Shown: piece by piece, positions 1 to 12,142 of the stretch | Numbering within the stretch: the stretch's first letter is position 1 | Layout of the letters: every line of letters begins with the position of its first letter | Virus genome (UHGV): UHGV-0062900 | DNA length: 12,192 bases | Strand: one strand, 5' to 3' | From: a virus | Notes under the pieces: generated by a model | Database searches by the model: none | Seen by the model: only the letters and a program-made list of their open reading frames with translations | Told to the model about the DNA's origin: nothing | Position numbers and translations under genes: made by a program

Positions 1-127
1 TAGCATGTCTTTTCCCTTCTGGTTAACATGACATACCAATAACTCTTGTCTAAAAAGCCAGCAAGATAAAAAGCCAGTATTCACGACCACCAGCGTGTTT
101 ACTGTACTGCACAAGGTTTACAGGTAC

Positions 128-152
128 AAAAAAACCGCTCAGCGGCGGGTTT
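128..152 (-). terminator. Rho-independent terminator-like hairpin for leftward transcription (possible tR'-type terminator)
   Basis: On the minus strand the sequence reads aaacccgccgctgagcggttttttt: a short GC stem (ccgc/gcgg, loop tga) followed by a run of 7 T. On the plus strand the same hairpin is preceded by an A-run. Confidence 0.4.
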
Positions 153-305
153 AAGTTGTGTGGCGAAGTAACCACTCTTAACACAGTAAACGAGAATATG
201 CGGACCGCGTAAGTTTTTTTTGATAGATTATGCATATGCAACGAACCTAGGATCATTAACAAATCACAACCCATTGATTCAAAAGGATAATAAAGGGTAA
301 TTTTA

Positions 306-1238
306 ATGACTACTACAGCCACTTCCGCGCCACTAACTAAACAAAAAAAAATGCGTATCGGTTTCTTCCAAAGCTCCTCAGGAACGAAGTCAACTACATC
401 AAATGCACAACTTGCATTTGACAACATGTATACAACCATTGTTACACCTTCGCAAAATTCTTATACCGCTGAGTTTGATAAGAAAAAATTAAAGATTGTA
501 TTCTTAGAAAAAGACGCACAGGCGGAGTTCTATTTTGGTTATCTATCATGCTCTCGTGATGGTTTCCACTTACCTTATATTGGTGATGAAAATTGGGATG
601 AGCACAATATTCCGTTAGATGATAAAAAATATATAGTCGAACGCACTTATTTTATTTACTACTATAAGAAAGACATTCTTGTTTTATCTCAAAATCATTT
701 AGGACCTAAAGTTTCCGATTTAGCATTTCTTTTATTCAATTTTTCTGAAGAAAACAAACCTGTAGCGTTTGAGGCAATTTGGAAAAAAGAAAGTGTAAAA
801 GAACTACTTGAAACAGGAAGCACTTTACGTAGCTGTGAAATTACACTCGCCGCTCCACGTAATTTTAGCGCAACGGATTATGACCTTTCGAATTCATTTT
901 CCAAAAGTATGATTGAAATGATGGCTGGGATGGGCGGTTCGCATTTAAAACTATCACTTAGAGGTAGAGCATCGCAACGTAAATTAATCCGTGGTTATCT
1001 CAGTGATGAAGTAAAAAGTGGAATAAAGGAATTAATAGAAAAAGTTCCTCACTTATTACGTAAAGCTAATGTCACTGAACCTAAAAATACTCATTCAAGG
1101 AGTCTTCTCAATCAAGTTCTGATCAGTGAAAAAAACATTAACACAAAAGATGGCTACGCAAAAGAAACAGATGTGCGTACTGCCTTGATCAGTGCTAAAA
1201 TTGAACATGGTCAGTATTTAAAGCAATATGAAATCTGA
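306..1238 (+). CDS. Hypothetical soluble protein, first gene of low-GC two-gene cassette; candidate RexA-like sensor
   Basis: 310-aa ORF; alternative ATG at 351 gives MRIGFF... Purine-rich AAGGG at 294-298 upstream of ATG 306. Sampled stretches are roughly 28-33% G+C by manual count, against mid-50s in the neighbouring Q and nin genes. No hydrophobic segments. Size and partner gene resemble lambda RexA (279 aa); recalled motif resemblance (MRIGFF vs RexA MKNGFY; GPKVSDLAFLL vs RexA GPTTSDLTDFL) is from memory and unverified. Confidence 0.6.
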   Translation: MTTTATSAPLTKQKKMRIGFFQSSSGTKSTTSNAQLAFDNMYTTIVTPSQNSYTAEFDKKKLKIVFLEKDAQAEFYFGYLSCSRDGFHLPYIGDENWDEHNIPLDDKKYIVERTYFIYYYKKDILVLSQNHLGPKVSDLAFLLFNFSEENKPVAFEAIWKKESVKELLETGSTLRSCEITLAAPRNFSATDYDLSNSFSKSMIEMMAGMGGSHLKLSLRGRASQRKLIRGYLSDEVKSGIKELIEKVPHLLRKANVTEPKNTHSRSLLNQVLISEKNINTKDGYAKETDVRTALISAKIEHGQYLKQYEI

Positions 1239-1252
1239 TCTTATTTTTAAGG

Positions 1253-1705
1253 ATGATGATTATGCTTATTAAAGTTTTAATTAACATAGTTATCAGTGGG
1301 CTGTTAGCTTGGGTGCTTGGGAAATACCTAGCGCCTATGGCTCACTCTGATATCTTAAGTACAGCCGGAGTGTTATCTACGGTGGCAGGCATTTTGTTTG
1401 GTTTTGTATTGGCCGCTATTTCCATCTTCAGTTCTGCAAGTTCAAGTACTGATGGAATTATTTTTGCTTTAAAACAAAACAAGATTTTACCTAAAATTAT
1501 TCATAACCTGTTATCTACGGGAGTTACCTTAATATTAGCATGTATTTTCCCGCTGATAGCAATGTTTATAAATGAAAAAATCACCATTACCTCTGTAAGA
1601 CTTGATTTCGCCCTAACCTTATATGGTTTCTCGACCCTGATCGTATCAATAGTTTCATTTGCAAGTACCTGGAGGAAAATAAACTGGATATTACCCCACA
1701 TATAA
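1253..1705 (+). CDS. Small integral membrane protein with four predicted transmembrane helices, second gene of cassette; candidate RexB-like effector
   Basis: 150-aa ORF 14 nt after the upstream stop; ATG at 1262 is better spaced from AAGGA at 1249-1253. Four hydrophobic stretches at about residues 5-26, 34-60, 82-106 and 120-139. Same low-GC composition as the upstream gene. Size and topology match lambda RexB (144 aa, 4 TM). Confidence 0.65.
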   Translation: MMIMLIKVLINIVISGLLAWVLGKYLAPMAHSDILSTAGVLSTVAGILFGFVLAAISIFSSASSSTDGIIFALKQNKILPKIIHNLLSTGVTLILACIFPLIAMFINEKITITSVRLDFALTLYGFSTLIVSIVSFASTWRKINWILPHI

Positions 1706-1748: not shown

Positions 1749-2111
1749 TTAATCCATATCTAAGCTAACATTTAGAATAGCTAGACAACCTTCTATAAAT
1801 CCCTCAGCCATCTGTATCTCAATGCGTATTATTTTCTCATCCTTTTTGCGAGCTTTAGCGAGCTTTCTTTTAGAGATACCGTATAGGTAATGGGCAACAA
1901 GAAGCGAGTGTTCTTCAGGTCTTTTTTGCTTTAGACGAGCAAGACAACCTTCAATAATTAATGCATCACTATCTGAACAAGCCTGACGTGTTTTGCTTGT
2001 ATAGGGAAGAAGCCCTTTAAACCCAGCAGCTATAGGCGAATAGTCTACCCCAGAACTATCACTCGCCGCCCATGCACCCCAACGATCCAGAACCATCTGA
2101 ATATCACGCAT
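1749..2111 (-). CDS. Late-gene antiterminator Q, phage-21/QuuD-type (Phage_antitermQ family)
   Basis: Translation MRDIQMVLDRWGAWAA...IAAGFKGL...AEGFIEGCLAIL matches the remembered pattern of the short (~125 aa) Q family such as DLP12 QuuD. The track ORF starts at a TTG at 2126; ATG at 2111 is preceded by GGAGA at the right spacing, so 2111 is taken as the start (120 aa). Last gene of the nin operon, as expected for Q. Confidence 0.72.
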   Translation of the reverse strand: MRDIQMVLDRWGAWAASDSSGVDYSPIAAGFKGLLPYTSKTRQACSDSDALIIEGCLARLKQKRPEEHSLLVAHYLYGISKRKLAKARKKDEKIIRIEIQMAEGFIEGCLAILNVSLDMD

Positions 2112-2128
2112 CAACTTTCTCCACAAAA

Positions 2129-3124
2129 TCAGGCCAGCACGCCAGTTGCCAGCGCGCGATCGATAAAACGAAATATCAGCTCCAACTGGGAGCCATACTT
2201 CTCTTCAAATGCCACGGTATCCGCATGCAGCTCGTCGTGATGCTTTCTGCACAAAGGCAGCACGAAGAGGTCATGCGCTTTTGTACCTATTCCACCCTGA
2301 CCGTGGCCTATCAGGTGGTGGGGATCATCAGCAGGCTTTCCACAACATGCACACGGCTGCGTCTTAACCCAGCGCGTGTACTTTTCGTTAACCCAGCGGC
2401 GACGTTTTGGGCGTAACATAAAAGACTCCGGCGACTCCGGATCCACTTTCAGCGCCAGCACCTTTTTCGCTTTATTCTGGATGATGCTGGTGGCCGGAAC
2501 CGAAGGAACAAGGTCACTCTCCCGGGTGACAGACGGCACAACAGGCTTCGGTAATCTCAGTGCCTTACGGGCTGCACTTTCAGGTAAGGCATCCGCCAGA
2601 TCATTACGAACCAGCCACCAGCACAGTTCCGGCATTGTCACAACGTGACTATCATCAAAACCGAGATCCCGACGCACGACAGACAACACCCAGCGGGCAC
2701 AGTTATCCGTTGCCATTGATTCCAGCCGTTCCGTGAACTGATCGCGCAGCTGGTTATCGCAGTGCCAGCACAGACAGATTGCGCCCGGCGCGTGACGCAT
2801 TGTGGTCATGTTCTCGCTGTGCCAGTCGGAATGAGGCCACTGGCAGCCTTTTTCACGAAGTAACCAGCTTTCAAGACATTCCACGCCACCAGCACGACGG
2901 ATCACTGCCTCATTGCGGAACACGGCCCGAACGGCAGGATCATCCGCCAGCGGTTGTGATGCCGCCGGAACAGCACCACTGGCGAAAGATGAATAACGTT
3001 CCGGCTCAGGCTCCAGCAGGACACGCCCCTGCATAAACAGGGGCATCAGCTCTGAACCTGGTCTGAACAATACGATCCCCATACGCGGGGCAATTTCAGG
3101 GGTCAGTAGTGCTCTCACGGTCAC
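2129..3124 (-). CDS. DUF968-family phage protein with C-terminal Cys/His-rich (HNH-like) motif (YdfU-like)
   Basis: 331-aa ORF; C-terminus CACCGKPADDPHHLIGHGQGG...LCRKHHDELHAD and an internal CLCWHCDNQ motif resemble the DUF968/YdfU family of lambdoid nin regions (family assignment from memory). Start is uncertain: the track start at 3124 is a GTG, 1 nt after the upstream stop; the first in-frame ATG is at 3082. Confidence 0.6.
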   Translation of the reverse strand: MTVRALLTPEIAPRMGIVLFRPGSELMPLFMQGRVLLEPEPERYSSFASGAVPAASQPLADDPAVRAVFRNEAVIRRAGGVECLESWLLREKGCQWPHSDWHSENMTTMRHAPGAICLCWHCDNQLRDQFTERLESMATDNCARWVLSVVRRDLGFDDSHVVTMPELCWWLVRNDLADALPESAARKALRLPKPVVPSVTRESDLVPSVPATSIIQNKAKKVLALKVDPESPESFMLRPKRRRWVNEKYTRWVKTQPCACCGKPADDPHHLIGHGQGGIGTKAHDLFVLPLCRKHHDELHADTVAFEEKYGSQLELIFRFIDRALATGVLA

Positions 3125-3125
3125 C

Positions 3126-3923
3126 TCAATGAACGGTATCGAGCAGCTTTAACAGCTCAGGGAATCGGGATTCGAAGAAATGCGGCTGCGTCTCGCGCGG
3201 ATTTGCGGGACTGGTGATGTTCTTGCCGAACATGCAGCCTTTCGCTGTCAGCGACCAGAATTTTTTGATGTTGTTAATCGCGGTACGGCTGTATCGTTCG
3301 CGCTGCTCGACGATCCCCAGCTTCGCCATCTGGTGATATGCCTGATTAGCTGTTAGGCGGATACCATACTGTTTCAGCAGTGCACTCAGCGACAGCGTAG
3401 GGCGACTTGAGCCATCAGGCGCGTCTGCAGGAGCATCAATGGCATAGCGTGGTGCCAGATTCGGTAAGCCAACAGCCTCCTGGAGTTTCTGACAGGCCCC
3501 AAGCACAGATGAGTTAGACAGGTTTAACTCCCGGCGCATAAAGTCCAGCAGAATCACGCCAGCCTGCATCTTGTCAGCAGCCTGCCCGGATAATTTTTCC
3601 GGTGCGCTGGTTACCATATCGAAAGTACGGATCACCTTCAGATGGAATGACGGGCTGATCCACATTGCATAGGCATACACCAGTTCTTTGCAGACATACG
3701 TCCCCTGGTTATTTCCGCCACGACTAACGTTAACTGGCTCTATATTGACCGAGTTGCAAATCTGCAACTCGCTTATTAAACGTTCGGTTTGCTCATTGCG
3801 GAGCCAGAATGCAGGCTTATGCTTATCCAGAGAACCAGCAGCCCTGTGCAGATCGTTCAGGCTGTAACGCCCATAAGCATCACGACGAACTTCAATACCA
3901 TCAATGACCATCAGATTATTCAT
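3126..3923 (-). CDS. KilA-N domain protein (Roi/antirepressor-like)
   Basis: N-terminal MNNLMVIDGIEVRRDAYGRYSLNDLHRAAG...KPAFWLRNEQTERLI...GTYVCKELVYAYAMWISPSFHLKVI is a KilA-N-type domain; the C-terminal half is antirepressor-like. Start set at ATG 3923, preceded by AAGAGGAGA 8 nt upstream; the track start at 3956 would overlap rusA by 14 nt. Confidence 0.65.
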   Translation of the reverse strand: MNNLMVIDGIEVRRDAYGRYSLNDLHRAAGSLDKHKPAFWLRNEQTERLISELQICNSVNIEPVNVSRGGNNQGTYVCKELVYAYAMWISPSFHLKVIRTFDMVTSAPEKLSGQAADKMQAGVILLDFMRRELNLSNSSVLGACQKLQEAVGLPNLAPRYAIDAPADAPDGSSRPTLSLSALLKQYGIRLTANQAYHQMAKLGIVEQRERYSRTAINNIKKFWSLTAKGCMFGKNITSPANPRETQPHFFESRFPELLKLLDTVH

Positions 3924-3942
3924 ATTTCGTTTCTCCTCTTGA

Positions 3943-4332
3943 TCAGGCGGCTGCACCCGCCGTTTTCTCGTACTTACTGATAGTGATCTCGACCTTCCCT
4001 TCCGGGATAACCGGTCCCCACTCCACCAGCATTCTTTTCACCTGGCTGTCGTCTTCCCACACACCCGCGTGGGTCAGGGCGTCAAACAGCGCCTTGTTAT
4101 AGTTGTCCAGATCGCGGATCCGGTTATCCGGAGGAAACAACACGATCTCCACTGAAGCAGGTGCCGACGTTGGTTTTGGCAGACGACGTAACTGCTCAAC
4201 TATTGCTGCACACGCCGCGCTCTGGAATTTGCGCCCCGCCGCGCTTATCAGGCTCTTACCTGCAAACGCCCCTTTGTTGGGGTGTCGCCAGTACGTGTTC
4301 ACGCTGGGCGGGAAAGGCAGGATCAGCTTCAT
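3943..4332 (-). CDS. rusA: RusA-family Holliday junction resolvase
   Basis: 129 aa; LPFPPSVNTYWRH...RDLDNYNKALFDALTHAGVWEDDSQV carries the conserved RusA motifs (DLDN, FDAL, xDDxQ). ATGA overlap with the upstream gene stop. Confidence 0.85.
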   Translation of the reverse strand: MKLILPFPPSVNTYWRHPNKGAFAGKSLISAAGRKFQSAACAAIVEQLRRLPKPTSAPASVEIVLFPPDNRIRDLDNYNKALFDALTHAGVWEDDSQVKRMLVEWGPVIPEGKVEITISKYEKTAGAAA

Positions 4333-4655
4333 ACTTTCAGACCCCTCTCATGTAACCAGTGGGCTGCACGCAGCCTGGCGTTTTCCTCACCGGCAAGCAG
4401 TGAGCGGATAATCCCGACCGCCTCGCTGTCGTCGTCCTTGACCGCGGTATGAAGCGTTATCCCCCGGGCCACACCACGCTTTATCGTGATGACGCCTTTT
4501 TTCTCCAGTGCGCGAAGATGCTCCACCGCTGCATTCACCGAACGGTATCCCAGCATGGTTGCCACCTCCTGATTGGTTGGCGGGAAGCCACGTTCTTTCT
4601 GATAAGAAATCAGCATATCCAGCACCTGCTGCTGGCATTGAGTTAACGTCGTCAT
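4329..4655 (-). CDS. LexA N-terminal DNA-binding-domain-like protein lacking the S24 peptidase domain
   Basis: 108 aa; MTTLTQCQQQVLDMLISYQKERGFPPTNQEVATMLGYRSVNAAVEHLRALEKKGVITIKRGVARGITL aligns with the LexA winged-helix domain (MKALTARQQEVFDLI...[36 protein letters not shown]...RGIRL). There is no Ser/Lys peptidase domain. GGGAGA Shine-Dalgarno 7 nt upstream; ATGA coupling to the methyltransferase stop. Confidence 0.7.
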   Translation of the reverse strand: MTTLTQCQQQVLDMLISYQKERGFPPTNQEVATMLGYRSVNAAVEHLRALEKKGVITIKRGVARGITLHTAVKDDDSEAVGIIRSLLAGEENARLRAAHWLHERGLKV

Positions 4656-5305: not shown

Positions 5306-5799
5306 TAAGCCCCCACGTAATTCCCTGACAGATACCACTCATCACCCGGTACAGCGCGCTTGCTGCTTTTCCGTAAACACCGCTCACGACGCGCAAGAAA
5401 ATTGTTTCGCTCTGGCTGGGAGTGGCTTTCACGGAATGCCGCCATCCACACCGTTGCAGCACGACGGTATAAGCCCCTCGACTCCAGTTCTTCCGCCTGG
5501 CGGGTCAGGCACAAAATCACCCGGGGATCGTTAGTGCCGACATAGAAATTGCGCACAGGTCTGGTTTCACGAACTGGTTGCGGTTCCGCCTCCTGCGCTC
5601 TCTCAGTCAGGCGCGGGAAATGTCTGCGTGTATCCCCTTCACAACGGTGAGCCACACGACCACTCTGACGTAACTTGCTTGCTGACTGCAGAACGCGCTG
5701 CCGTGAGTAACCTGCAAAAGCATCCGCAATGTCTCCGGAAGTACACCCCGGATGGGCTTCAATGTATTTCTGAACTTCATTCAAAAGACTCATGATCAC
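5305..5799 (-). CDS. YfdN-like prophage protein (164 aa) with PerC-like C-terminal motif
   Basis: Length equals that remembered for K-12 CPS-53 YfdN (164 aa). C-terminal LESRGLYRRAATVWMAAF resembles the PerC/Pch activator signature (from memory). The track start at 5799 is a GTG; ATG at 5793 is an alternative. Stop overlaps the methyltransferase start. Confidence 0.55.
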   Translation of the reverse strand: MIMSLLNEVQKYIEAHPGCTSGDIADAFAGYSRQRVLQSASKLRQSGRVAHRCEGDTRRHFPRLTERAQEAEPQPVRETRPVRNFYVGTNDPRVILCLTRQAEELESRGLYRRAATVWMAAFRESHSQPERNNFLARRERCLRKSSKRAVPGDEWYLSGNYVGA

Positions 5800-6614
5800 C
5801 CCCTGAATCCTGCCGGGATCTGGCTGTAGTCCACGTTGTCGTAACTGGCTTTGAAGTACGGGTCCTCGCGTCTGGCTGCAGATACCGCAGGAACTTCCCA
5901 GGATTCTTCGAAATGACGATCCGGACCAAAGAACGTGACAGCCTGTTTCACAAATTGTGTGCCGCTGTTACCCATCGCAGATACCCAGCCCGCGTAGCGT
6001 TTCACACCTTCCAGCATGGTTTCGGGGTTTACCCCCTCATTCAAACGGGCTTTCCAGGCTTTGAAGGCTGCAGATTTTGAATTGCCACCAGCACGTTTGG
6101 GATATACCAGCCATGCCTGCTCAAACTCCGGAGAGTATTCCGGTCGGTTTGAACGAACTCGCACGGACTCATCAACTGATGCACCAACAGCTATTGGTTC
6201 ATTGACTGGTTCTTTGACTGGTTCAAAAGAGTGACTGGTTCTGGGTGAATCTCCTGCACTACCCCCTGGTGCAACTCCTGCACTACCTGGTGAATTTGCT
6301 GCACCAGATAGTGAATTATTTGCACTACCCCCTAGTGAATCTCCTGCACCATCAAGATGAAGGAGATAGATATTACTTGAGTTACCTTTTTCACCTTTCC
6401 GGGTGACTTTTTTTACCAGCCCGGACTCACAAAGGGCCGCAATATGATTCATCACAGAACGTTTGCTAATCTCGCACTGGTCAGCAATATGCTGGTAGCT
6501 GGGCCAGCACTCACCCTGATCGCTGGCATTATCAGCCAGCTTGATCAGAACCAGTTTTCGCAATGGATTACCCACTCGAATTTTCATCGCTTTAACCATC
6601 AGCTCCATACTCAT
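5796..6614 (-). CDS. Replication initiator, O-like: N-terminal winged-helix/HTH domain, Gly/Ser/Ala-rich linker, C-terminal domain
   Basis: N-terminus KIRVGNPLRKLVLIKLADNASDQGECWPSYQHIADQCEISKRSVMNHIAALCESGLVKK is the HTH type common in phage replication proteins. Low-complexity linker GDSLGGSANNSLSGAANSPGSAGVAPGGSAGDSP is encoded by tandem DNA repeats. Position matches K-12 yfdO (O-like fragment). ATGA overlap with the upstream gene. Confidence 0.6.
   Translation of the reverse strand: MSMELMVKAMKIRVGNPLRKLVLIKLADNASDQGECWPSYQHIADQCEISKRSVMNHIAALCESGLVKKVTRKGEKGNSSNIYLLHLDGAGDSLGGSANNSLSGAANSPGSAGVAPGGSAGDSPRTSHSFEPVKEPVNEPIAVGASVDESVRVRSNRPEYSPEFEQAWLVYPKRAGGNSKSAAFKAWKARLNEGVNPETMLEGVKRYAGWVSAMGNSGTQFVKQAVTFFGPDRHFEESWEVPAVSAARREDPYFKASYDNVDYSQIPAGFRG
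6202..6353. repeat. Iteron-like tandem direct repeats inside the O-like gene (candidate replication origin)
   Basis: Three copies of TGACTGGTTC at 6203-6212, 6215-6224 and 6232-6241. Then about five imperfect ~21-24 bp units built on tgcact-acc(cc)-ctggtgaa at roughly 6244-6270, 6271-6293, 6294-6315, 6316-6339 and 6340-6353. Moderately AT-rich stretch follows at about 6355-6420. Confidence 0.6.
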
Positions 6615-6847
6615 GCTGCACCTCCGAGATGCTTCATGTTTTTTCCGGAGCGAAAGGCTATAAGCGGCATACTGACGCGGTAATTACGGCCAAGCGGTTC
6701 ACAAATCACCTTCTGGCATTCACGGTCAACCAGGCTAACACGTAGAACATGCCCTGCAGGTGTGGTGTACCACTGCCCAACTGTAGGAATTGATATTTTT
6801 TTACGCTGAAGTAAACGGTGAATATTGAGGATCAACGGATTAAGCAT
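6611..6847 (-). CDS. Hypothetical small protein (78 aa)
   Basis: ORF within the coupled operon; its ATG lies 2 nt upstream of the stop of the preceding gene, and its stop overlaps the O-like start (ATGA). No recognisable motif. Confidence 0.4.
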   Translation of the reverse strand: MLNPLILNIHRLLQRKKISIPTVGQWYTTPAGHVLRVSLVDRECQKVICEPLGRNYRVSMPLIAFRSGKNMKHLGGAA

Positions 6848-7676
6848 GACGATGCCCTCCGCTGATATTCAGGAGACGGTGAATATGAAGATTAGCCTTA
6901 TCCGCCAAACGAATACGTTCAGCCTGCAAGTTAAGAAGGGTTTCTACCAGAAGTTGATGCGCCTGCGGATCTGAAAGAGTTACCTTGCGCAGAGCACGTA
7001 GTGCTGTTGTTACATAACTGAGTTTATGTAAGTCTTCATCATTCAGACGAGTGAGGGCTGGGACAGTAGCCATGATGGCAGCCTCCTTGATCGGTGAAAT
7101 ACTTCCACCACCGGAAACGCCAATTTCGCTGGTGGTGAACTGAACGGGGTTGGCGTAACCGGTGATCAAGGAAACCGGCGCATCTTTCGATGCCCCCGCC
7201 CAGCCCACCATAACTTTGATGTGAGCAAATGCGGACGATAAAAAAGACGCTGGCGCGTCATATATCGCCTTGATCAATTCCAGGACGCCAATCCCGGCAC
7301 CCGCTTTATAAGGTGCCTGAACAGTGTAACGTCCCGGAATGGCAGAATCAATGTGCTGGTGGTCCTTCACACTCAATAAAATCACGCCTGAATTTCCACA
7401 AAGGACTAAAGCACTCATGCGGGTAGTCTTTGCGAAGATAGATAACGCGCTGTGTTTCTGGCTCCCAACGAATAACATGAACATAAAGTCCTCTTCCGTC
7501 ACGAAACCAGCGGTTAAGTTCCTGCACAACTCGCCCCCCACAGTCAGGTAAAGTTCTCTGTGGTTACTTACAGCCAGGTGATTTGGTAATCTGCATTCAT
7601 GCCGTAACAACAGGTGTTCAGCGACGCTGACCACCAGCTGTTGCGACAAACGGTTATTTGCCGTTAAACTGTTCAT
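6840..7676 (-). CDS. Hypothetical protein (278 aa) in the replication module; function unknown
   Basis: Long ORF, ATGA-coupled to the upstream gene. No Walker A motif, so not an obvious DnaC/P-type helicase loader. No family recognised. Confidence 0.5.
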   Translation of the reverse strand: MNSLTANNRLSQQLVVSVAEHLLLRHECRLPNHLAVSNHRELYLTVGGELCRNLTAGFVTEEDFMFMLFVGSQKHSALSIFAKTTRMSALVLCGNSGVILLSVKDHQHIDSAIPGRYTVQAPYKAGAGIGVLELIKAIYDAPASFLSSAFAHIKVMVGWAGASKDAPVSLITGYANPVQFTTSEIGVSGGGSISPIKEAAIMATVPALTRLNDEDLHKLSYVTTALRALRKVTLSDPQAHQLLVETLLNLQAERIRLADKANLHIHRLLNISGGHRHA

Positions 7677-8236
7677 GCGTTAGTTTCTCCACAGACACAA
7701 AACGCCACGACGCCCGGAGCTGCACACTCGCGGGCGTCACTCTTTTCTGGAGCGCAAAAGATTTTGTAGACCAGTGCTGCATGCTCTTGGAGCTTCGAAA
7801 TTGACAGATACAACTCATCATTAATTGCTGTCTGCTCGTGTGGCTCCACGACCCCATCTTCGATTGCCGAACGAATCTGCTTTGAGTAATTCCCGATCTG
7901 TTCGATGACTTCCAGCAGGCGCTGGTTTATATCGGCGTTCTCTACTTCCTCAATTTCAGGAAGCGATACGAACACCCCACCAGCAGACTGTGCGACAGCA
8001 TCCGCAATGTAGTGAGTGCCAGCCGCGCGCTGTAAAACCATTGCCCATCCCAGCGGGAAAATCTGATCGCCATCGGCACGAAGGCGGTTAAATAATGCGT
8101 TCTCTGTTACATCCAGCCAGTCAGCTGCTTCAGCGTAACCACCCGGCAACGCTGCGATAGTTTTTCTGACAGCTTTCACGTACCACTCAGGCTGTTTTTC
8201 TACTTTCCAGTGATACTTACCCACGGTTAGCCTCAT
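7673..8236 (-). CDS. cII-position regulator candidate (possibly YdaT-like CII functional analogue)
   Basis: 187-aa ORF immediately downstream of cro, where lambdoid phages encode CII or YdaT. Assignment is by position only; sequence family not verified. Confidence 0.45.
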   Translation of the reverse strand: MRLTVGKYHWKVEKQPEWYVKAVRKTIAALPGGYAEAADWLDVTENALFNRLRADGDQIFPLGWAMVLQRAAGTHYIADAVAQSAGGVFVSLPEIEEVENADINQRLLEVIEQIGNYSKQIRSAIEDGVVEPHEQTAINDELYLSISKLQEHAALVYKIFCAPEKSDARECAAPGVVAFCVCGETNA

Positions 8237-8267
8237 CGTTCTGTGGTTAAAAATTGAAGGTGTTCTG

Positions 8268-8468
8268 TTAATCTTTCGGATAGATATCCGGTCTTAAGTC
8301 AGATTTCGTAATTGCACCTGACGTGCATTGCTCAAGTTTTTTCGCCAGCACAAAACTGGCTTTTTTATAACCATTGAAAACCAGCCGTAAGTAGCCAGGT
8401 GTTGAGCCAACTTTTCCGGCCAACTCGCCCTGCTGTTCTTTGGTTAAAGAGTCCCAATACGCTTTCAT
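8268..8468 (-). CDS. Cro-like small DNA-binding regulator
   Basis: 66 aa from ATG 8468 (MKAYWDSLTKEQQGELAGKVGSTPGYLRLVFNGYKK...), with GGAGG (complement of 8479-8483) upstream. The track start at 8492 coincides with the predicted PR -10 and is rejected. Divergent from the cI-type repressor. Confidence 0.65.
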   Translation of the reverse strand: MKAYWDSLTKEQQGELAGKVGSTPGYLRLVFNGYKKASFVLAKKLEQCTSGAITKSDLRPDIYPKD

Positions 8469-8558
8469 ACAATATGTACCTCCGGTATACATATTACATG
8501 ATTAAAATGAACCTTCAAGATACTTGTACCTTATCGGTACAAAGGTTTTAATTTCGTT
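8469..8558. promoter_or_regulatory. Immunity switch region: divergent PR (leftward) and PRM-like (rightward) promoters with dyad operator candidates
   Basis: PR on the minus strand: -35 TTGAAG (complement of 8513-8518), 16-nt spacer, -10 TAATAT (complement of 8491-8496). PRM-like on the plus strand: -35 TTGTAC 8524-8529, 17-nt spacer, -10 TTTAAT 8547-8552, with cI ATG at 8559, implying a leaderless cI mRNA. Dyads: TTGTACC-ttatc-GGTACAA at 8524-8542; CATACAA-T-ATGTACC at 8466-8480, which resembles the OL palindrome. Confidence 0.55.
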
Positions 8559-9233
8559 ATGAAAACAATCCATGACATCCGGCGGTCTAACGCCAGAAAA
8601 CTGAGAGATGGTGTTGGCGGAAATTCATCCTTTGCCACCATGATTGATCGCGAGCCAACCCAAACCAGCAGGTTTATGGGGGATGGCGCTACTAAAAATA
8701 TCGGTGACAGCATGGCACGGCACATCGAAAAATGTTTCGACCTGCCTGTCGGATGGCTTGATCAAGAACACCAGACAACGAACATCACAAAAAAACCTGA
8801 TGTTTCAATCACTAACAAACAAATAACGTTAGTCCCTGTCATATCATGGGTACAGGCCGGAGCATGGAAAGAAGTTGGCTATTCTGAGGTTGATTTGAGC
8901 ACAGCAGAAACGTATCCCTGCCCTGTACCCTGTGGCGAAATGACTTATATCTTGCGGGTGATTGGTGATTCAATGATTGATGAGTACCGCCCTGGAGACA
9001 TGATTTTTGTTGATCCCGAAGTCCCTGCCTGCCACGGTGACGACGTTATTGCATTGATGCACGATACAGGCGAAACCACCTTCAAGCGATTGATAGAAGA
9101 TGGAACACAGCGTTATCTCAAAGCATTAAACCCAAACTGGCCTGAGCCTTACATTAAGATTAACGGTAATTGCTCTATAATTGGTACAGTGATTTTCTCG
9201 GGAAAACCAAGAAGATACACAATAAAGGCCTAA
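8559..9233 (+). CDS. CI-type prophage repressor with C-terminal S24 (LexA-like) autopeptidase domain
   Basis: 224 aa. C-terminal VIGDSMIDEY...GDMIFVDPE...TFKRL carries the Ser (GDSM) and Lys (FKRL) catalytic dyad; a candidate Ala-Gly cleavage site lies in VQAGAW. N-terminal HTH-like region. Divergent from cro. Confidence 0.85.
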   Translation: MKTIHDIRRSNARKLRDGVGGNSSFATMIDREPTQTSRFMGDGATKNIGDSMARHIEKCFDLPVGWLDQEHQTTNITKKPDVSITNKQITLVPVISWVQAGAWKEVGYSEVDLSTAETYPCPVPCGEMTYILRVIGDSMIDEYRPGDMIFVDPEVPACHGDDVIALMHDTGETTFKRLIEDGTQRYLKALNPNWPEPYIKINGNCSIIGTVIFSGKPRRYTIKA

Positions 9234-9245
9234 TCAATATTTATG

Positions 9246-9268
9246 AACCTGCTTCGGCAGGTTTTTTT
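9246..9268 (+). terminator. Rho-independent terminator downstream of the repressor gene
   Basis: aacctgc-ttcg-gcaggtt: 7-bp stem with GNRA-like tetraloop, followed immediately by ttttt(t), 13 nt after the cI stop. Confidence 0.7.
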
Positions 9269-9272
9269 ATAC

Positions 9273-9305
9273 TTGACAATGTACCCATGAGATACATAAT
9301 GTATC
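9273..9305 (+). promoter_or_regulatory. PL-like early-left promoter with overlapping operator palindrome
   Basis: -35 TTGACA 9273-9278, 16-nt spacer, -10 CATAAT 9295-9300. Perfect 15-bp palindrome GATACAT-A-ATGTATC at 9291-9305 overlaps the -10; an ATGTACC half-site lies in the spacer (9279-9285). Confidence 0.6.
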
Positions 9306-9872
9306 TAAAAGAAACATAACACAGGCAAGATTAAAACAAAATTTGGTTGTAACACGGCGTATGGCACATGCGTCGTTAGCGGTCTGGTGACGTTAAAGGG
9401 GACAATCCACTCCTTGCTCGAGCAAACAAACCAGGTAGCCGGAATGTGCAAGTCAATGATGATGCTGATAAGACGCCTAACCAGCGTGGCGATTCGGTTT
9501 GACGCCTGGGAAGAGACCAGGGTGCAACGATGAGGGCATTTATGGAGCCGCGACAAAGTGTGGTGCCGTAACTGGCTAAGTGCTCTCAGCGTTGTGGTAA
9601 TCCGCGAAATGGCGCGGCGGTAAGTATGGCGGGGTTACTCTTTCCCCGTTGAGGACACCGGATTGTCAGGTTGACCAGCCACTGCTTTGGCGGTACCAGT
9701 TTGTACCCTTGCTTCCGGCTGGTACCGCTCTTTTTACAAAACAGAGAAGAGCATCACCGGACGACGGGCTCATAACCCAATCCATCCGGGCGGCAGTCAC
9801 CGCAGGTGTTCTTCTCTGTTTTGTGGAGAAACCAACCGACCTTGCAGGGTCGATATGATGAGGAGCAGCAAA
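9306..9872 (+). other. Long ORF-poor structured leader of the early-left operon (candidate cis-acting RNA element or sRNA)
   Basis: About 570 nt between the PL-like promoter and the first well-supported start (9873), with no plus-strand ORF over ~30 codons having a Shine-Dalgarno. Long-range inverted repeat: 9731-9755 pairs with 9805-9829 (perfect 14-bp core acaaaacagagaag / cttctctgttttgt), enclosing the hairpin gcgg-cagtca-ccgc (9790-9803). Additional hairpin ccgcg-aaatgg-cgcgg at 9602-9617. Confidence 0.35.
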
Positions 9873-10235
9873 ATGGCTAGCGAACGCAGTACTGATGTGC
9901 AGGCATTTATCGGGGAGCTGGACGGCGGCGTATTTGAAACCAAAATCGGCGCTGTTCTCAGTGAAGTCGCTTCCGGTGTGATGAACACGAAAACCAAAGG
10001 TAAGGTCTCGCTCAACCTGGAAATCGAACCGTTTGATGAGAACCGTGTGAAAATCAAACACAAACTCTCATATGTTCGCCCGACTAACCGCGGGAAAATT
10101 TCTGAAGAAGACACCACCGAAACACCGATGTATGTCAATCGCGGTGGTCGCCTGACTATTCTGCAGGAAGACCAGGGACAATTACTGACTCTTGCCGGTG
10201 AACCTGACGGAAAACTTCGCGCAGCAGGTCATTAA
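9873..10235 (+). CDS. YfdP-like early protein (120 aa)
   Basis: ATG 9873 is preceded by AGGAG at 9861-9865 with a 7-nt spacer. Length 120 aa matches that remembered for K-12 CPS-53 YfdP. The track's longer ORF from 9687 is an unsupported N-terminal extension through the structured leader. Confidence 0.65.
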   Translation: MASERSTDVQAFIGELDGGVFETKIGAVLSEVASGVMNTKTKGKVSLNLEIEPFDENRVKIKHKLSYVRPTNRGKISEEDTTETPMYVNRGGRLTILQEDQGQLLTLAGEPDGKLRAAGH

Positions 10236-10300
10236 TATCGTTCTTAATTAACTGATTATTTATCTCATCACTGAATATCTTTATATAGTGAGGACTTATT

Positions 10301-11125
10301 ATGTCTCAGAACTTAGACGCAACCGCAATTAATCAAATCCATGCCCTTATTTCTGCTCAGGGTGTTAATGAAATTATCAGTAAGATTGGTGCCGATGCTG
10401 TGGCATTGCCTGAGAATTTCCGCATTCATGATCTGGAAAAATTTAATTTAAATCGCTTCCGTTTCCGTGGTGCGCTTTCCACTGCCAGCATCGATGACTT
10501 TACCCGTTATTCTAAAGATCTTGCAGATGAAGGCACCCGCTGCTTTATCGATGCTGATAATATGCGTGCCGTCAGTGTGCTTAACCTGGGTACTATTGAT
10601 GAACCAGGTCACGCAGATAACACCGCCACACTCAAACTGAAAAAGACAGCACCGTTCTCTGCTCTGTTGTCTGTTAACGGCGAGCGTAACTCCCAGAAGT
10701 CACTAGCAGAATGGATTGAAGACTGGGCCGACTATCTTGTGGGCTTTGATGCTAATGGTGACGCTATTCAGGCAACAAAAGCGGCTGCGGCTGTCCGTAA
10801 AATCACGATTGAAGCAAACCAGACCGCTGATTTTGAAGATAATGACTTCAGCGGCAAACGCTCCCTGATGGAGTCTGTCGAAGCGAAGACCAAAGACATT
10901 ATGCCAGTGGCATTTGAATTTAAATGCGTTCCGTTTGAAGGTCTGAAAGAACGTCCGTTTAAATTACGCCTCAGTATTATCACTGGCGATCGTCCTGTAC
11001 TGGTTCTGCGCATTATTCAGCTGGAGGCGGTGCAGGAAGAAATGGCTAACGAATTTCGTGATCTGCTTGTTGAGAAATTCAAGGACAGCAAAGTAGAAAC
11101 CTTTATTGGTACTTTCATCGCCTGA
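10301..11125 (+). CDS. yfdQ: YfdQ-like protein (DUF2303 family), 274 aa
   Basis: 274-aa ORF with GAGGA Shine-Dalgarno 5 nt upstream. Length and gene order (before the HD-domain gene) match K-12 CPS-53 yfdQ, from memory. Confidence 0.75.
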
Positions 11126-11137
11126 TTTCATTACTGC

Positions 11138-11159
11138 AAATGCCCCTGCGGGGGCATTT
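11138..11159 (+). terminator. Intercistronic hairpin between the yfdQ-like and yfdR-like genes (attenuator or stabiliser; weak terminator)
   Basis: aaatgcccc-tgcg-ggggcattt: 9-bp perfect inverted repeat with 4-nt loop. No strong downstream T-run (followed by atggaaacg). Confidence 0.3.
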
Positions 11160-11252
11160 ATGGAAACGTAATTTACTCAATAATCGCCGGATGGTGAGGG
11201 ATTTTTTTTACCAGAATTCAGCGCGGTGCAGCGCATATACGTGGAGAACAAA

Positions 11253-11789
11253 ATGTCATTTATTAAAACTTTTTCCGGGAAGCATTTTTATTATGACAGG
11301 ATAAATAAAGACGACATCGATATTAACGATATCGCGGTTTCCCTTTCAAATATCTGTCGCTTTGCCGGACATCTTTCACATTTCTACAGCGTCGCCCAAC
11401 ATGCGGTTCTTTGCAGCCAGCTGGTGCCGCAGGAATTTGCTTTTGAAGCGTTAATGCATGATGCAACAGAAGCGTATTGCCAGGACATTCCCGCACCACT
11501 GAAACGCCTTCTTCCTGACTATAAACAAATGGAAGAAAAAATAGACGCCGTAATCCGTGAGAAATACGGGTTACCCCCAGTTATGAGTACGCCCGTGAAA
11601 TATGCCGATCTCATCATGCTGGCAACCGAACGCCGCGATCTCGGGCTTGATGATGGCTCTTTCTGGCCTGTACTGGAAGGTATCCCGGCAACAGAGATGT
11701 TCAACGTGATTCCACTGGCACCGGGCCATGCCTACGGGATGTTTATGGAACGCTTTAACGAGTTATCGGAGTTACGCAAATGCGCATGA
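11253..11789 (+). CDS. yfdR: HD-domain phosphohydrolase, YfdR-like 5'-deoxynucleotidase (178 aa)
   Basis: Start at ATG 11253 (MSFIKTFSGKHFYYD...), with GGAGA 5 nt upstream. HD motif in HFYSVAQHAV...MHDATEA. Length 178 aa matches K-12 YfdR. The track start at 11226 is rejected. Confidence 0.8.
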   Translation: MSFIKTFSGKHFYYDRINKDDIDINDIAVSLSNICRFAGHLSHFYSVAQHAVLCSQLVPQEFAFEALMHDATEAYCQDIPAPLKRLLPDYKQMEEKIDAVIREKYGLPPVMSTPVKYADLIMLATERRDLGLDDGSFWPVLEGIPATEMFNVIPLAPGHAYGMFMERFNELSELRKCA

Positions 11790-12142
11790 ATGTTTTCGAA
11801 ATGGAAGGGTTTCTTCGTGGGAGATGTGTACCGCGAGATCTGAAAGTAAATAAAACAGATGCTGAATACCTAGTGCGTAAATTCGATGCGCTTGAAGCTA
11901 AATGTGCAGCACAGGAAAACAAAGTAATACCAGTGTCAACTGAACTGCCACCAGCAAATGAAAGTGTTTTGTTATTCGATGCTAACGGAGAAGGCTGGCT
12001 AATTGGCTGGCGTTCTCTCTGGTACACCTGGGGACAAAAAGAAACCGGAGAATGGCAATGGACATTTCAGGTCGGGGACCTTGAAAACGTCAATATCACT
12101 CACTGGGCAGTAATGCCAAAAGCACCGGAGGATGGAGCATAA
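11780..12142 (+). CDS. YfdS-like protein (120 aa; DUF551-like C-terminus)
   Basis: ORF overlaps the yfdR-like stop by 10 nt. Length matches K-12 YfdS; Trp-rich C-terminal segment (GWLIGWRSLWYTWGQKETGEWQW). Confidence 0.65.
   Translation: MRMNVFEMEGFLRGRCVPRDLKVNKTDAEYLVRKFDALEAKCAAQENKVIPVSTELPPANESVLLFDANGEGWLIGWRSLWYTWGQKETGEWQWTFQVGDLENVNITHWAVMPKAPEDGA

Follow-up and report, generated by a model that had tools for sequence, protein, structure and literature searches.

The window analysed here, the whole 12,192-nt stretch of the virus genome UHGV-0062900, belongs to a lambdoid prophage of E. coli; several complete E. coli chromosomes match its positions 1-2200 at 100% identity. Beside the gene for the antiterminator Q it carries a small cassette of two open reading frames (ORFs), here called ORF A and ORF B, which encode a cytoplasmic protein and a small membrane protein with four transmembrane (TM) helices. 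By analogy with characterised systems, the pair would be a RexAB-like accessory operon (a 'moron') that aborts infection by other phages, with A as the putative sensor and B as the putative membrane effector; we give this reading a probability of about 0.72. The features that make up the cassette are as follows.

306-1238, plus strand: ORF A, 310 aa, Pfam DUF6731, a RexA-like cytoplasmic protein with a predicted split globular domain and a dimerisation domain
1262-1705 (alternative start at 1253, 150 aa), plus strand: ORF B, 147 aa, a four-TM membrane protein and RexB-like candidate effector
185-305, plus strand: cassette-specific 5' region, from the alignment of four phages and a promoter and terminator scan
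197-220, plus strand: hairpin followed by a T-run at the left edge of the cassette, present in all DUF6731 cassette variants
263-291, upstream of ORF A: weak sigma-70-like site, ATCACA-17-GATAAT, a putative promoter
1709-1734, between the stop codons of ORF B and Q: hairpin with an 11-bp stem, -15.5 and -17.0 kcal/mol on the two strands

ORF A matches the Pfam family DUF6731 (PF20505) over residues 12-273 (E 2.6e-11; 44 bits against a gathering cut-off of 27). The same match is made by 123 of 138 of its relatives, and RefSeq names the protein 'DUF6731 family protein'. An exhaustive profile search at E <= 1e-3 gave a family of 191 representatives at 50% identity, mostly 280-310 aa in length. 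No function is assigned to ORF A by PHROGs, which places it in a family of unknown function, by NCBIfam or by PADLOC. The link to RexA comes from profile comparison. When a diverse DUF6731 alignment (138 sequences) was compared by hhalign with an alignment of the RexA family (24 sequences), the two matched with Prob 93% and E 3.5e-7 over 254 colinear columns, residues 17-310 of ORF A corresponding to 1-270 of RexA; an independent build with MAFFT gave Prob 76-92%. The original prediction had named such a comparison of hidden Markov models (HMMs) as a check on the likeness to RexA, and the likeness withstood it. The observed score of 53.4 is to be set against 14.3 ± 2.4 (maximum 20.6) for 100 column-shuffled RexA profiles and 16.6 for a reversed profile. 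Distant family members are needed in the profiles, and hhalign with narrow profiles or single Rex sequences is non-significant.

Cross-searches gave the same link in both directions. A DUF6731 HMM picks up homologues of RexA (E 1.4e-7, n=29), and among 2081 distinct six-frame ORFs taken from all fetched non-Rex loci, 19 of the top 20 found by a RexA HMM are DUF6731 proteins. Lambda RexA has MKNGFY at its start and FGPTTSDLTDFL further along, and hhalign pairs these with MRIGFF and LGPKVSDLAFLL of ORF A; both resemblances had been named in the original prediction, and correctly. Identity to lambda Rex is ~12%. ORF A is a remote but demonstrable homologue of RexA, and the family DUF6731 may be regarded as RexA-like.

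The predicted secondary structure of ORF A comprises seven strands with helices over residues 12-169, a module of four strands and two helices at 176-281 and a C-terminal helix at 287-305. This agrees with the published layout of RexA, a split globular domain with an inserted dimerisation domain. Structural matches to the ORF A model include CHL4 (7.5), RdgC (7.2), CENP-N (7.1) and IML3 (6.7, rank 8), and these four proteins are among the structural relatives of RexA given in the paper on the RexA structure (PMC11077077). A Foldseek search with the model places RdgC first (E 1.8e-4). The model was not built from RexA, because no templates were used and the PDB entry for RexA, 8TWQ, dates from 2024. 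As modelled, ORF A has the two-domain (RdgC-like) fold of RexA.

ORF B has four TM helices by hydropathy, in line with the four hydrophobic helices originally claimed for it, and an AlphaFold2 model (pLDDT 82) shows helices at 2-22, 28-59, 75-102 and 114-146 together with a short one at 66-72. The protein belongs to no Pfam family. Its sole hit, to MotA/ExbB, is sub-threshold (E 0.12) and is seen in 4 of 22 family members; a MotA/ExbB-like reading of ORF B was rejected. Sequence similarity to RexB is reached by way of distant relatives. When an HMM of lambda-type RexB was run against the same 2081 ORFs, ranks 1-4 were all partners of DUF6731 genes (E 2.8e-5, 5.4e-3, 0.16 and 0.18), and an HMM made from enterobacterial relatives of ORF B only finds the top two of these partners at E 2.5e-6 and 7.9e-18, clear of noise. 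The transitive chain from the RexB HMM through the distant partners to ORF B thus provides a family-level sequence link of ORF B to RexB. A motif in the loop between TM2 and TM3 is common to RexB (RRLAKIREYGYM) and a distant DUF6731 partner (RRLIQKMKEYGHY), and the equivalent loop is essential for defence in gp31 of phage Sbash (PMC6426596). Direct alignment of ORF B with the RexB family by hhalign is suggestive only: the register is constant, residues 12-80 of ORF B corresponding to 18-85 of RexB, and shuffles score 12.6 ± 2.3 and a reversed profile 12.4, compared with the 31.6 observed. A Foldseek search of BFVD with the ORF B model gave nothing at E <= 1e-3, and the protein at rank 2 is a weak match (prob 0.99, TM-score 0.50) of 165 aa from Sbash, the length of gp31. 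Homology between ORF B and RexB is probable, not proven.

Several results weigh against a RexAB-like assignment. BLASTP of the two proteins against their lambda counterparts is non-significant (E 0.3-0.4 for ORF A and RexA), as is the narrow, enterobacterial-only profile of ORF A against RexA (E 0.07-0.16), and a sequence-profile search of the PDB with ORF A did not find RexA. The Pfam RexA family (PF15969) matches neither ORF A nor, among the families listed, any of the 138 family members, and Pfam RexB (PF15968) is unmatched by ORF B and 22 members of its family. PADLOC, also put forward originally as a means of recognising a defence family, fails to do so: its Rex models miss both proteins, yet score lambda RexA at 1.3e-108 and lambda RexB at 8.6e-61. 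The direct hhalign comparison of ORF B with the RexB family is weak in absolute terms (Prob 23-51%, P 1.6e-4 to 8.6e-4), and the 50 best BFVD hits to the ORF B model do not include lambda RexB. Residues R219 and K221 of RexA, which are needed for DNA binding, align to E258 and K260 of ORF A, and the basic pair is not conserved. The two genes are not adjacent to cI, unlike lambda rexAB. The candidate promoter of the cassette matches 9 of 12 consensus positions, and promoter-like sites occur at chance frequency. In the library of papers searched there is no mention of DUF6731 or of the accession numbers.

The pairing of the two genes is itself a conserved character. Across phyla, in almost all of the loci inspected, the two lie side by side, in organisms as different as Enterobacterales, Vibrio, Nitrosomonas and Desulfoluna, and they often overlap or lie a few bases apart. 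Among 80 loci from IMG/VR with a gene for a relative of ORF A, a B gene comes directly 3' of A in 78, and in 71 a convergent Q gene of this type follows 20-43 bp after B, the rest being in other prophage contexts. Each of five distant metagenomic DUF6731 genes has an ORF of 134-153 aa directly downstream, and all seven genomes found via B have A upstream (Citrobacter, two Xenorhabdus, Pseudoalteromonas, Endozoicomonas, Desulfoluna and a Nitrosomonas metagenome-assembled genome). Conservation of the pair extends from 100% to ~20% identity with gene order and length kept and with many invariant residues, and DUF6731 with its partner is present in Proteobacteria and at least one Desulfobacterota genome. 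Vibrio phage 10N.286.54.F4_PE001 (PQ189356; positions 1389-2896 of locus L011) carries an A-B pair at 39% and 27% identity, respectively, directly after its integrase gene. The phage, which is temperate and PM2-like (Vinavirales), has 14.6 kb and comes from Vibrio cyclitrophicus; its virus realm is quite another than that of the lambdoid phage that hosts the cassette.

Among 5426 complete E. coli genomes, the whole of positions 1-2200, with this allele, was found in 18, in varied hosts and with both ORFs intact and 99.4-100% identical, and a relative detectable at the nucleotide level was found in 96. A tblastn search found the pair on three of 72,556 plasmids.

The slot that holds the cassette is bordered by the following features.

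1749-2126, minus strand: Q antiterminator gene, Pfam Phage_antitermQ (E 3.7e-52), right border of the cargo slot
1-184, minus strand: conserved phage backbone left of the slot, the leader of a small ORF, methylase and lysis operon, invariant in four phages
146-134 and 94-73, minus strand: two terminator-like hairpins in the backbone, ahead of a 67-aa ORF starting at position 6 of the window

ORF A and ORF B are convergent with Q. In the 100%-identical RefSeq prophage, the gene order is DUF968, Q, then B and A (A being read towards B), the 67-aa ORF, a DNA methyltransferase, holin, lysozyme and Rz; the cassette lies on the strand opposite Q in the interval between Q and lysis genes, as was stated at the outset. 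Its limits were set by aligning the window with phage cdtI, an E. coli prophage with another allele of the pair, and phage PhiR40_1. The backbone is invariant to about position 184 and resumes at the stop codon of Q (1749), and all between differs. In the same slot, the alleles of the pair are 62% identical in phage cdtI and 47% identical in the aligned E. coli prophage, and every cassette allele has its own hairpin 3' of gene B. From the edges at ~184 and 1749 and from these hairpins, ~185-1748 can be defined as an exchangeable, self-terminated cargo module. PhiR40_1 has in this place (positions 2575-3223 of locus L010, equivalent to ~185-1748 of the window) an unrelated 148-aa ORF antisense to Q and a 37-aa ORF. 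The slot is therefore a general cargo hotspot. Its cargo was antisense to Q in all cases seen. The interval from the Q stop codon to the cargo has no sequence conserved among the aligned phages. Positions 1-184 look like a late-operon leader; a PR' late promoter and a qut site were sought around the slot and none could be placed.

The G+C content of 306-1705 is 35.3% (ORF A 35.2%, ORF B 36.3%; 22-50% in 100-nt windows), compared with 41.5% for Q, 51-56% for the genes of the nin region (DUF968, 56.0%) and 50.0% for the remaining window. The original prediction of a compositionally foreign, low-G+C cassette holds as regards the contrast, but its 28-33% for the cassette was somewhat low and its mid-50s for Q too high. 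The minimum within the cassette, 22% in a 100-nt window, is at the A/B junction (1196-1295). Three in-frame ATG codons (1253, 1256 and 1262) lie here 3' of AAGGA at 1247-1251, and homologues favour the last. It is the start used by RefSeq and by nearly all homologues, and gives a protein of 147 aa beginning MLIK. The two ORFs do form a tight pair; the 14-nt gap first given for them applies to the start at 1253, and with the likelier start at 1262 the gap is 23 nt.

Hairpins bracket the cassette, as had been noted, at 134-148 and 1709-1734. The first is terminator-like on the minus strand, with a stem and T7, and the second is a terminator-like end of the cassette and, on the other strand, of the Q transcript. 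Terminator-like sites number seven, compared with 1.5 ± 1.3 in shuffles. Upstream of gene A, a hairpin (TGCGGACCGCG) with a run of eight T is common to all three DUF6731 cassette alleles. The hairpin and T-run at 197-220 may serve as an insulator-terminator or as a regulatory leader of the cassette.

The manner in which the pair would act can be outlined from its relatives. In the lysogen, the cassette presumably has a promoter of its own, from which it is read on the strand opposite Q. ORF A would be a dimeric, non-specific DNA-binding sensor of the infecting phage, its trigger perhaps being DNA or a protein-DNA intermediate, or else a phage protein. ORF A would then activate ORF B, which may oligomerise or open as a channel or pore in the inner membrane. 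Opening would lead to collapse of membrane potential and ATP, and the cell would stop growing or die before the invader completed its cycle. We infer DNA binding, activation of B by A, depolarisation and phage exclusion from lambda RexAB, Sucellos, RexABpp and Sbash gp30/31, which are described later in the text.

Given that ORF A is a RexA homologue, the pair might mainly serve the lysis-lysogeny decision of the prophage itself and not defence. Lambda RexA acts on the bistable switch independently of RexB (PMC11077077). RexA, which interacts with both DNA and CI, tilts that switch to lytic growth, and RexB modulates proteolysis; the cassette also lies where the early (Q) and late operons meet. 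This explanation is nevertheless unlikely. The pair is found as well in phages of other, unrelated types whose switches differ, in the PM2-like Vibrio prophage and in other IMG/VR slots, and also, if it is the same as Sucellos, in a cargo context of the V. cholerae type. Here it has no linkage to cI, and its rarity and the swapping of divergent alleles in one slot are typical of defence cargo, not of core regulation.

An addiction or stress-death module, in which ORF B is a membrane toxin restrained or triggered by ORF A and stabilises the prophage, overlaps the abortive-infection model and does not exclude it. A small four-TM protein and a soluble partner in a tight operon have the look of such a module, and in Pseudomonas putida overexpression of RexA leads to RexB-dependent growth arrest (PMC12894663). 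Pfam, NCBIfam and PADLOC, however, matched no toxin-antitoxin family, and all validated relatives behave as anti-phage systems, which makes addiction as the main role quite improbable.

The nearness of the holin, lysozyme and Rz genes, and faint holin-like Pfam hits (E 0.006-0.07, each in 1 of 22 members of the B family), could suggest an accessory lysis function with ORF B as a holin- or antiholin-like timing protein. This very unlikely reading was rejected: the lysis genes run on the other strand from the pair, which carries terminators of its own; the prophage already has a canonical lambda-family holin; a RexA-like protein accompanies B in every case; and the pair is found away from lysis genes in other elements. 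That the cassette is horizontally acquired DNA in decay and without function, as its low G+C content and rarity might imply, is scarcely credible and was likewise rejected, given ORFs that are intact and 99.4-100% identical in 18 complete genomes from varied hosts and a pair kept from 100% to ~20% identity with its order, lengths and many invariant residues.

A RexAB-like exclusion system remains the preferred reading, and a bolder, joint version of it is conceivable but doubtful. In this version DUF6731 and its four-TM partner would form a large branch of the Rex superfamily distinct from lambda Rex, Sucellos and RexABpp. The distant members of the partner family may then be the first bridge from RexB to the 'analogue' membrane partners, with the shared cytoplasmic TM2-TM3 loop as the candidate interface between A and B. 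Also, since the cassette is constantly placed convergent with Q, Q-dependent late transcription may run antisense through it and so allow the induced prophage to silence its own suicide system.

The RexAB-like reading proposes a likely function and mechanism for DUF6731. Pfam has no family for ORF B, and under standard annotation the two genes carry no labels beyond DUF6731 and hypothetical protein. RexAB, the oldest known phage-exclusion system, would have relatives far beyond lambda that a current finder (PADLOC v2) misses. Beside Q there appears to be a rare, swappable set of defence alleles, carried by ~0.3-1.8% of complete E. coli genomes, including Shiga toxin-producing and clinical strains. 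The diverse homologues offer handles on how a RexA-like sensor and a RexB-like channel communicate, namely the N-terminal strand, the GPxxSDL motif and the TM2-TM3 loop.

Elsewhere in the window, the genes that could be placed are listed below.

5796-6614: replication-initiator-like HTH_36/DnaD_N gene
6840-7676, minus strand: Ash-family ORF, 278 aa, Pfam Phage_ASH (E 1.3e-18)
7673-8236: CII-like gene
8559-9233: cI-like S24-peptidase gene
9687-10235: ORF of 182 aa without a Pfam match
10301-11125: DUF2303 protein
11226-11789: YfbR-like HD-domain protein

The Ash-family ORF is placed between the CII-like and HTH_36/DnaD_N genes. Downstream of the cI-like gene, the ~450 bp at 9234-9686 contain no plus-strand ORF of at least 60 aa, and the slot between cI and PL is indeed empty, as originally claimed. 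Positions 9234-12142 are an early-left region, with functions mostly unassigned. In the identical RefSeq prophage (locus L001, accessory genes at 5934-6227 and 7600-8652), and outside the window, the iss/bor gene for a serum-survival lipoprotein is near the lysis module and the DNA methyltransferase gene is between the cassette and holin.

Three divergent systems of the RexAB type have been validated: Sucellos, RexABpp (PMC12894663) and Sbash gp30/31 (PMC6426596). Sucellos (SclA/SclB) of V. cholerae is described as structurally RexAB-like and as missed by the Rex Pfam domains; its two genes are both required, the phenotype is one of abortive infection and SclB is a predicted TM pore (bioRxiv 10.1101/2024.07.02.601686). 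Most of its reported occurrences are in prophages, often of Salmonella; a Nitrosospira phage, whose hosts are ammonia oxidisers, was added to them later. The DUF6731 family similarly has members in Vibrio, Salmonella (with the B homologue P0128) and Nitrosomonas. Sucellos is a chromosomal-integron cassette (presumably VCA0367-0368), whereas the pair described here occupies the Q slot of a prophage. Compared by description and taxonomic spread only, the DUF6731 pair and Sucellos probably belong to the same family.

RexABpp (PP_5643/PP_5644) is from prophage P1 of Pseudomonas putida, and overexpression of its RexA causes growth arrest that depends on RexB (PMC12894663). It is downstream of a CI-like repressor, unlike the pair here. 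Comparison of primer-derived termini only gives a weak hint of likeness to ORF B, MLIGQLANP in RexBpp against MLIKVLINI. A primer-derived 25-mer of RexABpp was not found in viral or metagenome collections, and no DUF6731 representative has its termini.

Gp30/gp31 of Sbash, and gp44/gp43 of Gordonia phage CarolAnn, are prophage-expressed pairs of a soluble and a four-TM protein for which depolarisation has been proposed. Sbash genes 30 and 31 are not adjacent to the repressor, in which they resemble the pair described here. In Sbash (KP027201; positions 2934-4509 of locus L058) they directly follow lysin A, lysin B and holin, a parallel to the lysis-proximal position of ORF A and ORF B. Sbash gp30/gp31 have no detectable sequence similarity to the DUF6731 pair or to lambda Rex; with 372 aa, gp30 exceeds ORF A in length, and it contains DUF4747; the hosts are Actinobacteria. 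RdgC (PDB 2OWL) is far more distant from ORF A than is RexA; it is the product of a chromosomal housekeeping gene and has no membrane partner.

In lambda, rexAB is downstream of cI in the PRM transcript, whereas the pair here is between Q and the late leader and convergent with Q. 'RexAB-like' is a fitting term for the pair; RexAB in the strict sense, defined by the Pfam and PADLOC models and by a position adjacent to cI, is not. ORF A and the architecture of the pair come within the broader, fold-defined RexAB-type group. The original prediction had allowed for a RexAB-like or a novel system. Of these the former stands, through hhalign and HMM searches for A and through distant family members for B, and the latter is not needed. 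The kind of system is already known. What is new is that DUF6731 is linked to RexA, that a bridge at sequence level leads towards RexB, that the family is broad and that PADLOC v2, a standard defence annotator, does not see it.

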